Assembly: GCA_965207165.1 (NCBI GenBank)
Contig: OZ242265.1
Span: 278,415-342,414 of the forward strand
DNA length: 64,000 nt
DNA from: Gammaproteobacteria bacterium
GTDB taxonomy: Bacteria; Pseudomonadota; Gammaproteobacteria; Eutrophobiales; Eutrophobiaceae
Direction of reading: 5' to 3'
In this document: in pieces, positions 14,540 to 19,493 of the stretch
Layout of the letters: each line of letters opens with the position of its first letter
Position numbering within the stretch: position 1 is the first letter of the stretch
Made by a program: the position numbers and the translations under genes
The notes under the pieces: generated by a model
The model's database searches: none
Told to the model about the DNA's origin: nothing
The model's input: the letters and a program-made list of their open reading frames with translations, nothing else

Positions 14540-16831
14540 CTAGATTGATGGATTGGCAGGACGGCACCGGGCGTCTCCCAGGATTGTTTCATATGCAGTT
14601 TTTTGGCTCTCCGGCAAGTATTCGGCCCTCTGCTGCAACACCTCCAGCAGAGGACAGGCCTGTTCCGGCCTCGGCGAACCGGAACGGATACGCACCCTGT
14701 TCAGCATACCTTCCCACCAGATATCAGATGTCGGTAATACCTTATCGGTAATGACGCCCCAGGCTCTATCGGCAGTAAAAGGGTCGCCGGTCAATTCGGC
14801 AGTGCGCGCCAGCAAGCGCCAGGCATCACCTGAACTCGGATGTTCCCGCGAGAAAGCCAGCGCCTTTTCGTGGGCTGCTTCCTGGTCATCTATGGAAAGA
14901 AAACTCTCTATGATGAGACGGTAAAACCTGCGATCGATATCAGGCAGCGTTGCTGCGGCCGGGTGTGCCAGCCGGGCCAGTTCCAGTCGTTGCCGTATAT
15001 CTTTCCGTGCGGCAATCCAGGGGTATATCAGCTCCAGAGGAAGGTCCAGGCTGTTGCTCCCGTCCAGCGAATGCATCATTTCCGTCAGTTTGGACCAGTT
15101 GCCCAGCCGGTCATATAACCGGAGCCGCGACCACGACAAGGCATAATCGATGTTCGCATCACGCTCAGCCCCGATGATAAAGAAACCCAGCGACCTGATC
15201 ATTTCATCCGGATGTGCAGCGATCAGGTCTTCACGGTTTTCCTCTTCAACCTGTCCCAGGTTACCCAGGAACTCCAGTGAATTGACCAGCTTGGCCGGCT
15301 CCGGTCCGGCAAGTGCGCGCATTTGCAACAGCAAGGCGATATTGCGAGGATTTCCCCTGTCTGCTCCGGGCAATTTCCTGAAAGCATCCATACCTTGACG
15401 GGCCAGGTCAACGGCGTTTTCCGTTTGATCGGTTGTGACCCTGGCGCTGAATTCCCGCGCCAGGAAATGAAATGAAGTGCGTTCCACCGAACCCGCAAAT
15501 TCCGAAGTTGAGCGGATCTGGCGGAGTGTCTCCAGGGCAGCATCAGCGCTCTGCGAGGTTTGCGCAATGAGCAGGCGGGCCTGATCAGCCTCGGGGTCAT
15601 CCGGATTTTTATCCACAAACCGTTGTGCTGCCGAGTGCAGGGGCTTGTGGCTGGTTTTATGGCTGTCTCTCAGGGCGAGCGCCAGGTGAACCGTGTAAAG
15701 CAGCTTTGCCGTTGCCCTGTCTATTTCAGCTGGCAGTCCTTTCCGGCGGTCGAGCTTCCCGAGAATTCCCAGCGCTGTCTGGTAACTCCCGTCCCTGTAG
15801 GCGGCGAACGCCCAGCGGTAGCGAAAAACGTCAAGATTAATTCCCTGCTGCGGTATGACCTCCTTGAAAAACGCTTCATAATTCTGTACCGCTTTTTGAT
15901 AATCATTATGGGTCAGGCGGAACTCTGCGGCAGCCAGGGAATTCCAGGGGCCAACGTCGGTAGCAGCGACTTGCTGGGCAAAAGCCATCAGGTTTTCAAC
16001 TAACGACTGGTCCATGTGACCGGCATTTACGAGTACCTGCAGGTGCTGCGCTACGGCATGATCAGGTTTTCCCTGCTCGCGGCTTTTCTGCAATATGGCG
16101 AATAATTCCCTGCGCAGCATTTGCGCCTGGTCGGCGTTAATGTCCTTGCCGACGGCGGCAGCAGTAACGTCTCCCAAACGCAGTTCCTGCAGCAGCAGTT
16201 CCATTGATATGGCATCTTTGACCGGTGAAGCCGGCAGCGCAGACACTGCTTCATCCAGTTTTCCGAAGATCTGCCGGGCGCGGGCAGTGTGGCCCAGTTC
16301 CAGGTCGACATAACCGATACCCAGCCATCCTCCATAAAAGAGTTGCGGCCGGAACAGTTGCAATGAAGCTGTCTGGAATCCCTTGCGTGCGCGCGCCAGA
16401 ATACTTTCCCGGCCTGACAGGGATTGCCGGGCAATTTCAAGGTCAATCCATGCCGACCAGTAGATAAACGCAGCTTCGGCGAAACTCAGATCGTCCCACG
16501 CCTGCGAGCGGTAGAGACGCTCAAGAGCAGCCTCGCCCTGTCCTGTTTTACGTTCCGTAGCCGCCAGGATCTGCCCGGTCCGCGTTTCCATGGCCCCGAG
16601 AAGTTCCCGCAATGTTTCGAGTTCTTCCAGTCTCGGTGTCTTGCGCACCTCATCGATGACGGGACCCAGATCCCCAGCGATGCGGGCGACGCGAGATGCT
16701 TCCGGGACGGTCATGAGTTGTGCATGAAAGTCGCGCACGATTTCTATGAGATCCCTGTGATCATCGGCAGCCGCCGGCGTTACCGCGATTAATAAGGCTA
16801 GCATCCCGGCTGTCACCCGACCTGCTTTCAT
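14540..16831 (-). CDS. Exported TPR/alpha-solenoid protein
   Basis: Signal peptide (ALLIAVTPAAA-DD); helical repeats such as GWLGIGYVDLELGHTARARQIF and YRWAFAAYRDGSYQTALGIL. Confidence 0.7.
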   Translation of the reverse strand: MKAGRVTAGMLALLIAVTPAAADDHRDLIEIVRDFHAQLMTVPEASRVARIAGDLGPVIDEVRKTPRLEELETLRELLGAMETRTGQILAATERKTGQGEAALERLYRSQAWDDLSFAEAAFIYWSAWIDLEIARQSLSGRESILARARKGFQTASLQLFRPQLFYGGWLGIGYVDLELGHTARARQIFGKLDEAVSALPASPVKDAISMELLLQELRLGDVTAAAVGKDINADQAQMLRRELFAILQKSREQGKPDHAVAQHLQVLVNAGHMDQSLVENLMAFAQQVAATDVGPWNSLAAAEFRLTHNDYQKAVQNYEAFFKEVIPQQGINLDVFRYRWAFAAYRDGSYQTALGILGKLDRRKGLPAEIDRATAKLLYTVHLALALRDSHKTSHKPLHSAAQRFVDKNPDDPEADQARLLIAQTSQSADAALETLRQIRSTSEFAGSVERTSFHFLAREFSARVTTDQTENAVDLARQGMDAFRKLPGADRGNPRNIALLLQMRALAGPEPAKLVNSLEFLGNLGQVEEENREDLIAAHPDEMIRSLGFFIIGAERDANIDYALSWSRLRLYDRLGNWSKLTEMMHSLDGSNSLDLPLELIYPWIAARKDIRQRLELARLAHPAAATLPDIDRRFYRLIIESFLSIDDQEAAHEKALAFSREHPSSGDAWRLLARTAELTGDPFTADRAWGVITDKVLPTSDIWWEGMLNRVRIRSGSPRPEQACPLLEVLQQRAEYLPESQKTAYETILGDARCRPANPSI

Positions 16832-16857
16832 GGTTTTGTCACCATAGTGATGCGGCC

Positions 16858-18429: not shown

Positions 18430-18852
18430 TCAGTCGAATTGTTGGGCAGCGGTCATTGAGATACTGGAAATACCGTGGCGGTTGAACAGATCCATTATGT
18501 CTACCGCACGTTGCAGTACCACCCCGGGGTCAACGCCAAGCACCACACGCGTATTGTCCGGAGAAATGATACCGGACGCGAACTTTTGCAGGGATTCGAT
18601 ATCGGTAGCTGTGCCGTTCAACCAGATGGTGCCGTTTTCATGTATTTCAACCGAAACCGTTTGCGTATCCGATACGGCGCCGGACGCGCCGCCAGCTTTG
18701 GCAAAATCAACAGTGTGCGGGCGGAAAAAATTTGTCTGCAGCATGAAAAAAACCAGCAGGATAAACACACAGTCTATGAGCGGGGTCAGCGACAAACGCC
18801 TGTTGCGCCGTTCGTACTTCAAAACAGGGAAAGTCCCCGGACCCGTGTGCAT
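18430..18852 (-). CDS. exbD: ExbD/TolR-family protein
   Basis: LTPLIDCVFILLVFFML with the conserved Asp. Confidence 0.9.
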   Translation of the reverse strand: MHTGPGTFPVLKYERRNRRLSLTPLIDCVFILLVFFMLQTNFFRPHTVDFAKAGGASGAVSDTQTVSVEIHENGTIWLNGTATDIESLQKFASGIISPDNTRVVLGVDPGVVLQRAVDIMDLFNRHGISSISMTAAQQFD

Positions 18853-19493
18853 TACGAGGAAGAAACCGGCAGTGTCAGCGCCCGGCTGAATACGTCATTC
18901 ACCTGGTTGGTGAGCACTTCCAGTTTTGACTCGAGCAATGTATGCAATATGGCAAAACAGATCGCTATGGAGAGCCCCACTGCCGTTGTCAGTAACGCCT
19001 CCCAGATGCCACCCGCCAGTGCAGCAGATTCCGCCGCTGAACCAGCGCTGCCCGCCAGGCCCCGGAACGCATCTATCATACCGAGAACGGTACCCAGCAG
19101 CCCGAGCACGGGCGCGAGGGTATAAATCAATTCGAGTATCCTGAGGTTCCGCGCATACTCACGTATGAATTCCGATGAGCGCCGTAATATTTCATCGTAG
19201 AGGTAATCGCCGTCCACCCTGGAATGCTGTTCCAGTACGAAACGCAGGTCACGTGCAATCGTCAGCGATGAACTGTTGATAATGACAAGCGCGCTGTTTT
19301 GTTCTCCGCTGTGCCACTGTTCCACGGCCAGGTAAAGTCGCTTGAGTACGGGTTCACTTGCTTTTGAGAACTGTAGAAACTTCCGCAGGGTCAACGCCAG
19401 CCCGAATATGGAGGCAACGAGTAAAATCGCTACTATCGGCCCTCCCAGCGCAAGCAATGTTTGTATGTCTGTAAATATTTCCAGCATGAGCAA
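18852..19493 (-). CDS. exbB: MotA/TolQ/ExbB proton-channel protein (alternative ATG at 19487)
   Basis: APVLGLLGTVLGMI...GGIWEALLTTAVGL motifs. Confidence 0.93.
   Translation of the reverse strand: MLMLEIFTDIQTLLALGGPIVAILLVASIFGLALTLRKFLQFSKASEPVLKRLYLAVEQWHSGEQNSALVIINSSSLTIARDLRFVLEQHSRVDGDYLYDEILRRSSEFIREYARNLRILELIYTLAPVLGLLGTVLGMIDAFRGLAGSAGSAAESAALAGGIWEALLTTAVGLSIAICFAILHTLLESKLEVLTNQVNDVFSRALTLPVSSS

Follow-up and report, generated by a model that had tools for sequence, protein, structure and literature searches.

A gammaproteobacterial operon encoding a predicted vWA force transducer behind an ExbB-ExbD-ExbD motor, and its linkage to DUF1302/DUF1329 modules in related genomes

Introduction

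Textbooks describe two routes by which energy of the inner membrane reaches the outer membrane of Gram-negative bacteria, the Ton and the Tol system. In June 2025, a further class, the von Willebrand factor A (vWA) force transducers, was predicted computationally (PMC12204202, Mol Biol Evol, section 8). Here we describe an operon of this kind, in which genes for one ExbB-like and two ExbD-like motor subunits are followed by genes for a 370-aa vWA domain protein and a 763-aa tetratricopeptide repeat (TPR)-like protein. The operon occupies positions 14540-19493 of a 64,000-nt stretch of DNA, hereafter the window (contig OZ242265.1, positions 278,415 to 342,414, of the Gammaproteobacteria bacterium assembly GCA_965207165.1; family Eutrophobiaceae), which belongs to a complete genome of 4.53 Mb in one contig (98% complete).

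As described in PMC12204202, vWA force transducers combine a transmembrane (TM) helix carrying an SHLS motif, a disordered proline-rich linker of ~100 residues with a 'motor box', and a C-terminal vWA domain. They occur in Proteobacteria, Planctomycetes, Verrucomicrobia, Bacteroidetes and Rhodothermaeota, and their genes lie next to those for one TolQ-like protein, two different TolR-like proteins and a TPR protein; AlphaFold3 models in the same paper put the conserved His on the motor. Among the papers listed by a literature search on vWA force transducers with TolQ/TolR, this was the only one to combine vWA, TolQ, TolR and 'force transducer', and the 2026 review PMC12905483 showed no occurrence of 'vWA'. 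It also cites the vWA adhesin CglB, which acts in the gliding system of Myxococcus.

A separate literature concerns a module of DUF1302, DUF1329, BNR and RND genes. As far as the available text of these reports goes, the genes form a cofit unit for which 'export of a cell wall component' was proposed (10.1101/072470), and the module is required for growth of Pseudomonas putida on Tween 20 and fatty esters (10.1101/2020.07.04.188060; Pseudomonas, PMC10866462). In predicted structures, an 18-strand barrel binds the LolA-like DUF1329 protein with an interface predicted TM-score (ipTM) of 0.84, and further contacts of DUF1329 with the BNR and RND proteins are predicted (PMC10866462, PMC13499233). 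No mention of a motor was found in the available portions of these four sources (10.1101/072470, 10.1101/2020.07.04.188060, PMC10866462, PMC13499233).

Results

A motor operon with a vWA-headed protein

The operon consists of five minus-strand open reading frames (ORFs) that run from position 19493 to 14540. The first (18852..19493, TTG start) encodes a 213-aa exbB/tolQ-like motor subunit in which the MotA_ExbB channel domain is present (PF01618, E 1.5e-25; 89.8 bits at a cut-off of 22.9). Two exbD/tolR-like genes follow, for proteins of 140 aa (18430..18852; PF02472 ExbD, E 1.5e-18) and 144 aa (17977..18411; PF02472, E 5.9e-17), and then come the gene for the 370-aa candidate TonB/TolA-like transducer with a vWA head (16858..17970; VWA_4 E 3.3e-11, VWA E 6.4e-10, VWA_2 E 8.6e-7) and the gene for the 763-aa protein (14540..16831). 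From 5' to 3', the genes are spaced by a 1-nt overlap and then by 18, 6 and 26 nt, with wider gaps at the edges (281 nt between the first gene and an upstream gene for a nucleoside hydrolase, 142 nt between the last gene and a downstream one for an aldehyde:ferredoxin oxidoreductase); the tight spacing fits a single operon. A preliminary description of the locus, made from the DNA letters, had stated that the operon contains neither a canonical TonB nor a TonB-dependent receptor, and indeed Pfam searches of the five products gave no match to TonB_C or to a TonB-dependent-receptor domain. The same searches revealed no MoxR or DUF58 match and no Pal-, TolB- or OmpA-like gene within the operon.

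All features quoted in that description are present in the translation of the 370-aa protein. Its N-terminal sequence, LLLCSSIIHALVIW, holds S18 and H22 of an SxxxH motif (CSSIIHAL). In an AlphaFold2 model built from an 85-row alignment, residues 5-32 form a helix, residues 33-136 are disordered, and residues 139-370 adopt a confident vWA fold, with a predicted local distance difference test (pLDDT) score mostly >90. The predicted TM helix (17875..17958, minus strand; pLDDT ~97) places S18 at 17917-17919 and H22 at 17905-17907. The putative linker, rich in Pro and Glu (residues 33-138; 17557..17874, minus strand; pLDDT 35-72), includes PDGPPAPENEQE at residues 35-46, a conserved stretch of alternating hydrophobic residues at ~45-51, the motif L67-x-F69...P77-P78...P89-P90-P91-P92, which ends in the PPPP of residues 89-92, and a Gly-rich tract at ~122-139; a short helix at 92-102 is its only secondary structure in the model. 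The vWA domain (16861..17556, minus strand), matched by three vWA Pfam families, carries DATGS at residues 162-166 as part of a site resembling the metal-ion-dependent adhesion site (MIDAS), D162-A-T164-G-S166 plus D266. When searched against the PDB with Foldseek, this domain was closest to integrin beta I-like domains (6om1_B, E 4.1e-10); BatB (3ibs_A, rank 23, target-normalised TM-score (TMt) 0.68), the CMG2 vWA domain and Rpn10 were among the later matches.

The preliminary description had named an unconserved SxxxH and a cleaved N-terminal signal peptide among the findings that would overturn its proposal; neither applies, as the motif is conserved and a cleaved leader is unlikely. S18 and H22 are invariant both in a close-family alignment (25/25 sequences, 48-86% identity) and in a wide alignment reaching down to 25% identity (85/85). 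In the wide alignment, the MIDAS residue D162 is invariant as well, and T164, S166 and D266 are at least 90% conserved, whereas linker residues L67, F69, P77, P78, L81 and P89-P91 are invariant in the 25 close homologues. A phmmer search of 1.84 billion cluster representatives retrieved 7187 relatives with E <= 1e-3, of which 1640 had E <= 1e-10 and 55 had E <= 1e-30. Among the 150 best representatives of 50%-identity clusters, 107 carry SxxxH within a hydrophobic 19-mer, a count that includes one probable false positive (P0199, whose motif falls within the vWA domain) and excludes P0142, which fell just short of the required hydropathy; the 43 misses include many fragments truncated at the N-terminus or sequences with AxxxH. 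Given this count and the invariance in both alignments, chance can be ruled out as the origin of the motif.

Some distant relatives are FHA-TM-vWA proteins of 570-730 aa, in which an FHA domain precedes the SxxxH helix; Pfam confirmed the FHA domain in all five proteins tested (P0160, P0174, P0181, P0205 and P0223). As judged from their domain composition, these fusions suggest that some vWA transducers are under phospho-threonine-dependent control. The FHA domain is not mentioned in the main text of PMC12204202, where 'FhaC' is the sole word-start match.

Comparison with described systems

The window operon shares with the class of PMC12204202 the TM Ser/His pair, the disordered linker, the C-terminal vWA domain, and adjacent genes for one TolQ-like, two TolR-like and one TPR protein. 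It displays four of the five testable features of the class, the less clear one being the motor-box strand, and it differs from the published examples of PVC (Planctomycetes-Verrucomicrobia-Chlamydiae) bacteria in that its TPR gene comes last, whereas theirs lies upstream. The operon is a newly found member of a class already published as a prediction and is matched by the published description. Accordingly, the 'third kind of Ton/Tol-like machine' envisaged in the preliminary description cannot be presented as new. Three observations reported here go beyond the main text of PMC12204202, the supplements of which may cover some of them: embedding of the genes in DUF1302/DUF1329/BNR/RND modules, an Asp/Asn pair of ExbD proteins, and the FHA-fused variants. 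MIDAS, DUF1302, DUF1329, RND, BNR and MMPL have no occurrences in that main text, nor were 'Asn', 'asparagine' or 'heterodimer' found there.

The operon resembles the Ton system in its MotA/ExbB and ExbD motor genes and in a transducer whose TM SxxxH helix is followed by a Pro-rich, presumably periplasmic linker. However, the transducer ends in a vWA head instead of TonB_C, the two ExbD proteins are non-identical and one of them lacks the TM Asp, there is no TonB-dependent receptor gene nearby, and the motor gene products fall well short of the equivalog cut-offs for ExbB and ExbD. TonB_C (PF03544) is absent from the 370-aa protein, yet the same model detects it elsewhere in the genome; lacking this domain, the protein is not TonB. 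The likeness to Tol-Pal lies in the motor, the SHLS-type transducer and a TPR protein at the end of the operon, in a CpoB-like position, but there is no TolA domain III, TolB or Pal, so the operon is not Tol-Pal either. The tol-pal genes are ordered tolQ-tolR-tolA...cpoB, and CpoB is far smaller than 763 aa. With AglRQS-Glt of Myxococcus, the operon shares the layout alone, one MotA/TolQ-like and two TolR-like genes, and a vWA domain at the envelope; CglB, however, is an outer-membrane surface adhesin and not an inner-membrane SxxxH protein, and no Glt genes are present here. Bat operons encode vWA proteins together with a MoxR ATPase, a DUF58 protein and a BatC-type TPR protein, and have no motor. 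Assignment to this aerotolerance module (BatA-E) was rejected: MoxR and DUF58 are missing from the operon, and the vWA gene follows exbB-exbD-exbD.

Conserved synteny and an Asp/Asn pair of ExbD proteins

Related loci were collected from 185,579 species genomes, in which 252 stretches were matched; 103 of these encode a relative, and the best 80 yielded 79 distinct loci. All 79 come from records of metagenome-assembled genomes of uncultured organisms, mostly labelled Gammaproteobacteria or Pseudomonadota, and the genes of the cassette (exbB, exbD, exbD, vwa and tpr) were located in them by tblastn of the window proteins. Among loci with sufficient flanks, an ExbB gene lies upstream of the vWA gene in 62/69 (at least 1700 nt), with two ExbD matches in 58 of these 62, and the TPR gene lies downstream in 71/73 (at least 2400 nt); the two loci without a TPR match (L043 and L079) have ORFs of 748 aa and 863 aa, respectively, at the TPR position. 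The family is rare: only 2 of 300 evenly sampled genomes of the taxonomic class, the window genome counted, contain it at E <= 1e-40.

Seven of the 69 loci lack an adjacent motor (L027, L029, L030, L032, L042, L066 and L073), and in five of the seven a DUF1302 gene is immediately 5' of vwa-tpr. Of three motor-less genomes searched, two have exbB-exbD-exbD elsewhere (at ~3.575 Mb in G001 and beside a DUF1302 gene in G003), and the third (G002) gave no clear copy. As a side observation, three motor-less loci (L029, L030 and L032) have a tandem pair of DUF1302 genes immediately 5' of vwa-tpr.

The top NCBIfam matches of the exbB-like protein are TolQ (56 bits, cut-off 221) and ExbB (45.9 bits, cut-off 206.2), and it is thus the equivalog of neither; across the motor genes, the best models, all below cut-off, are TolQ and TolR. 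PF02472 is found in both ExbD proteins, which are only ~24% identical to each other (tblastn cross-hits), but the protonatable TM Asp is present in ExbD1 alone (PLIDCVF), its column being occupied by Asn in ExbD2 (PMINVIF). This asymmetry is conserved in the related loci: the first-position gene encodes Asp in 67/67 cases (window included) and the second-position gene Asn in 62/63, L062 with Asp being the exception. Motors split off to other parts of the genome in relatives are Asp/Asn (L085) or Asp/Asp (L084). According to the available text of PMC11658791, E. coli ExbD(D25N) is inactive. Together with the conserved pairing, this implies, at the level of sequence, that ExbD1 would pair obligately with ExbD2, giving a heterodimer in which one site can be protonated. 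A literature search turned up no report of ExbD paralogues without the conserved aspartate, and PMC11658791 is silent on such paralogues in its available text.

Embedding of the cassette in DUF1302/DUF1329/BNR/RND modules

In 67 of the 79 loci, a DUF1302 or DUF1329 gene is present and the cassette lies inside a DUF1302/DUF1329/BNR/MMPL module, usually in the order MMPL - BNR(Ycf48-like) - DUF1302 - [exbB exbD exbD vwa tpr] - (CobW) - DUF1329. When flank length is taken into account, DUF1302 is upstream in 44/57 loci (at least 4500 nt) and DUF1329 downstream in 47/61 (at least 6500 nt); the assignments were confirmed by Pfam on the proteins of L027, L042 and L066. These neighbourhoods lend strong support to the hunch of the preliminary description that a DUF1302 protein might be involved. 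They also narrow the view that the operon has no outer-membrane partner gene: this holds for the clade of the window genome, but most relatives have a gene for a DUF1302 barrel immediately 5' of the cassette.

The window itself has no such module next to the cassette. In a maximum-likelihood tree of 85 vWA proteins (a quick build rooted on five distant relatives), the window groups with L001-L006, L016, L017 and L025 in a single clade (10 rows, all unlinked; Shimodaira-Hasegawa-like approximate likelihood ratio test (SH-aLRT) 99) nested inside linked lineages. The linked/unlinked label changes 3 times on this tree, compared with a mean of 12.3 after shuffling (0/500 shuffles as low). As judged from this tree, therefore, the linked state is ancestral, and the window clade is one that lost module linkage secondarily.

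The window does contain a module-like cluster (936-6557, minus strand) ~8 kb downstream of the vWA operon. It encodes a DUF1329/LolA-like protein of 424 aa, an MMPL protein of 851 aa and a DUF1302 protein of 602 aa, with 24-30% identity to the linked type, and has no BNR gene. In all five clade genomes checked, the orthologue of this DUF1302 gene is 12.7-15 kb from the vWA gene, a constant spacing that, among close relatives, may be merely inherited gene order.

Linked-type DUF1329 genes were found in 3 of 301 sampled genomes of the taxonomic class, two of which, G059 (99% complete, one contig, DUF1329 61% identical) and G058 (81% complete), are without a vWA match at E <= 1e-5. These two genomes refute the idea that linked-type DUF1329 is exclusive to genomes with the cassette.

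Two further features of the linked loci were recorded. A gene for a CobW/COG0523-type GTPase (PF02492 + CobW_C) lies between the TPR gene and DUF1329 in 25/79 loci (e.g., L007, L009, L011, L014 and L027) and is absent from the window; its position may point to a supply of metal for the MIDAS, or to zinc regulation. An extra DUF1329 copy is located between MMPL and BNR in L048, L049, L057, L068, L072, L074, L075 and L077-L079.

The TPR-like protein and its predicted contact with the vWA head

The 763-aa protein has no Pfam or NCBIfam match; its orthologue in L027 reaches 23.0 bits with TPR_14, just below the cut-off of 23.5. Its AlphaFold2 model is an all-alpha solenoid with helices spanning residues 26-753 (pLDDT 88.5). 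All orthologues have a signal-peptide-like N-terminus, and two C-terminal cysteines, C726 and C756, are at least 90% conserved. Foldseek returned generic TPR scaffolds alone (TM-score <=0.25), among which a Campylobacter flagellar periplasmic scaffold at rank 16 was given no weight as a relative. Neighbours in the ESM Atlas are clusters of TPR proteins of 770-1030 aa, many from Planctomycetota, which we take as a lead and not as evidence. As far as sequence and model allow, 'exported TPR-like protein' is a fair description.

The vWA head (residues 137-370) and the mature TPR protein (residues 24-763) were co-folded with a separate self-built alignment for each. The score was 0.54 (runs 0.61, 0.54 and 0.52), the best of three controls scored 0.00, the runs shared at least 73% of contacts, and the partner pLDDT was at least 78. 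In the benchmark, the mark was passed by 58/80 solved complexes and 2/110 mismatched pairs; the passes at <=0.60 were those of only 7 solved complexes (of 80) and of the two mismatched pairs, so that a pass in this range is weak. The near-universal vwa-tpr adjacency provides a favourable prior, and the predicted complex modestly raises the likelihood of direct partnership between the TPR protein and the vWA head. The earlier suggestion that the transducer acts via the exported TPR protein is to this extent weakly favoured by modelling (0.54 versus 0.00).

Discussion

A proposed machine and the evidence that weighs on it

Direct observations are which genes are present and in what order, their domain architecture, the conserved S18/H22 and MIDAS residues, the D/N asymmetry of the ExbD proteins and the synteny. 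Building on them, we infer the physical interactions, the use of the proton motive force and the target of the machine as follows. The five-gene operon probably encodes a Ton/Tol-like envelope machine that is driven by the proton motive force and belongs to the vWA force transducer class. ExbB would form a pentameric stator shell in the inner membrane, with ExbD1 (TM Asp) and ExbD2 (TM Asn) as an obligate heterodimeric plug offering one protonatable site, not two. The TM helix of the vWA protein would dock outside the ExbB ring via S18 and H22, like TonB and TolA, and the disordered Pro/Glu-rich linker of ~105 residues would cross the periplasm, its linear motifs probably touching the periplasmic domains of ExbD. 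The vWA head would grip a partner via its MIDAS, converting motor movement into a pulling force. The adjacent exported TPR protein would be the likeliest direct partner or adaptor, and the final target in most relatives is probably the DUF1302 barrel/DUF1329 LolA-like pair of the surrounding module, a link that would have been lost in the clade of the window genome. This is in essence the mechanism of the preliminary description, and it is the best available one: its reading of the vWA protein as a motor-coupled transducer of the TonB/TolA type is favoured by the invariant SxxxH motif, the modelled 28-residue helix and the motor synteny in 62/69 loci.

Several observations weigh against this interpretation. 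The class itself rests on prediction, no deletion phenotype having been reported for it (PMC12204202). Of the SHLS motif, only Ser and His are conserved in the 25-sequence alignment, Leu and the second Ser being variable, and DSSP calls no beta-strand 'motor box' in the modelled linker. The TolQ/ExbB/TolR/ExbD equivalog scores of the motor genes are far under the curated NCBIfam cut-offs, so that these genes form a separate branch of the motor family. Moreover, ExbD2 lacks the TM Asp; given the inactivity of D25N in E. coli, a D/N plug may work differently from known 5:2 motors or may not rotate. For the vWA head and the TPR protein, co-folding from self-built alignments gave a weak pass. The genome also encodes 5 TonB_C and 7 MotA/ExbB-family proteins, which makes cross-talk with a canonical TonB possible. 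As for the target, the window genome has no close orthologues of the linked-type module: DUF1329 matches do not exceed 25-28% identity, and the best other matches are 37% over 88 residues for DUF1302, 39% over 76 residues for BNR and 29% for MMPL, so the DUF1302 link cannot be claimed for this genome. Finally, in the genomes sampled, the cassette can occur without the linked-type module and linked-type DUF1329 without the cassette, and their association is thus strong but not obligate.

A more specific proposal, which we regard as possible but put forward only tentatively, is that the cassette supplies the energy input so far missing from the DUF1302/DUF1329/BNR/RND machine. The MIDAS 'hand' and the TPR adaptor would pull on the DUF1302 barrel or on the DUF1329 plug/shuttle, gating the passage of hydrophobic substrates across the outer membrane, and in the window clade the cassette would have been re-wired to the paralogous DUF1329-MMPL-DUF1302 cluster. 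If so, the logic of TonB-dependent transporters would have been realised with unrelated parts, including a plug with one Asp (Asp/Asn).

Alternative explanations

A rather unlikely alternative is that the machine is a Tol-Pal-like envelope tether or stabiliser, in which the vWA head and a CpoB-like TPR protein act on peptidoglycan or an outer-membrane lipoprotein and DUF1302/DUF1329 play no role. The motor-transducer-terminal TPR order, which mirrors tolQ-tolR-tolA...cpoB, would fit this alternative, as would the cassette of the window clade, which stands alone between nucleoside hydrolase and aldehyde:ferredoxin oxidoreductase genes in a genome without a linked-type module. Furthermore, the class is also known from PVC bacteria, Bacteroidetes and others, and DUF1302 never appears in the main text describing it (PMC12204202). 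Nevertheless, the operon has no Pal-, TolB- or OmpA-like gene, and the DUF1302/DUF1329 linkage is found in 67/79 loci and is ancestral on the vWA tree.

Less probable still, the motor could serve a canonical TonB or TolA encoded elsewhere, with the vWA and TPR proteins being accessory or unrelated envelope proteins (comparable to TtpB/TtpD of TonB2 operons or to the vWA-TPR proteins BatA/BatB/BatC) and not force transducers. The genome offers candidates for such a partnership in its 5 TonB_C and 7 MotA/ExbB genes, and the window itself contains a TonB2-type operon (43158-48426, plus strand) that encodes DUF3450 (284 aa), DUF3450+MotA_ExbB (458 aa; presumably TtpC-like), ExbB (193 aa), ExbD (133 aa), TonB (209 aa) and TPR (445 aa) proteins. 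Its layout, motor - transducer - terminal TPR, is that of the vWA operon; its ExbD keeps the TM Asp, and its TonB has TonB_C but no SxxxH in the TM helix. The match of the vWA domain to BatB (3ibs_A, rank 23, TMt 0.68) and the 7/69 loci in which the vWA-TPR pair has no adjacent motor point in the same direction. However, service to a distant TonB would leave the invariant S18/H22 in the TM helix unexplained; none of the five genes matches MoxR, DUF58 or TonB_C, motor and vWA genes are adjacent in 62/69 loci, and a cassette-type motor is kept elsewhere in 2/3 of the motor-less genomes searched.

It is highly improbable that the vWA protein starts with a Sec signal peptide whose cleavage would release a free, YfbK-like periplasmic protein without motor contact. 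A positive N-region (R3, K6) ahead of the hydrophobic stretch would fit such a peptide. However, the modelled helix of 28 residues exceeds a signal-peptide core, the sequence after it shows no cleavage site of the AxA type, and two polar residues invariant in 85/85 sequences are unexpected in a cleaved leader. In FHA-TM-vWA relatives, moreover, a cytoplasmic FHA domain comes first and the SxxxH helix begins only after 120-270 residues, so that it cannot be a signal peptide there.

Implications

A third type of transducer, with an integrin-like metal-dependent head, would broaden the Ton/Tol principle; so far, it is a predicted one. The conserved embedding of the cassette in the module ties together two questions, namely, what vWA force transducers pull on, and what the widespread DUF1302/DUF1329/BNR/RND genes do and how they are energised. 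The strict Asp/Asn pairing of the ExbD proteins amounts to a natural experiment on the use of two proton-binding sites by 5:2 motors.

Flanking genes and a promoter-like site

A sigma-70-like promoter match, TTTACA-17-TAGAAT (19563..19591, minus strand), with 10/12 consensus positions, is located ~70 nt 5' of the exbB-like start. The region contains 7 promoter-like sites, compared with a mean of 3.9 in shuffled sequence, and the match is weak sequence evidence for an operon promoter. The operon is flanked by an AFOR_N/AFOR_C gene (aldehyde:ferredoxin oxidoreductase; 12676-14397, minus strand) and by an inosine-uridine nucleoside hydrolase gene (19775-20830, minus strand). Among the nine loci of the window clade, the nucleoside hydrolase gene is a neighbour in 8/9 and the oxidoreductase gene in 5/9; these flanks are ordinary synteny, with no evident functional link to the operon.

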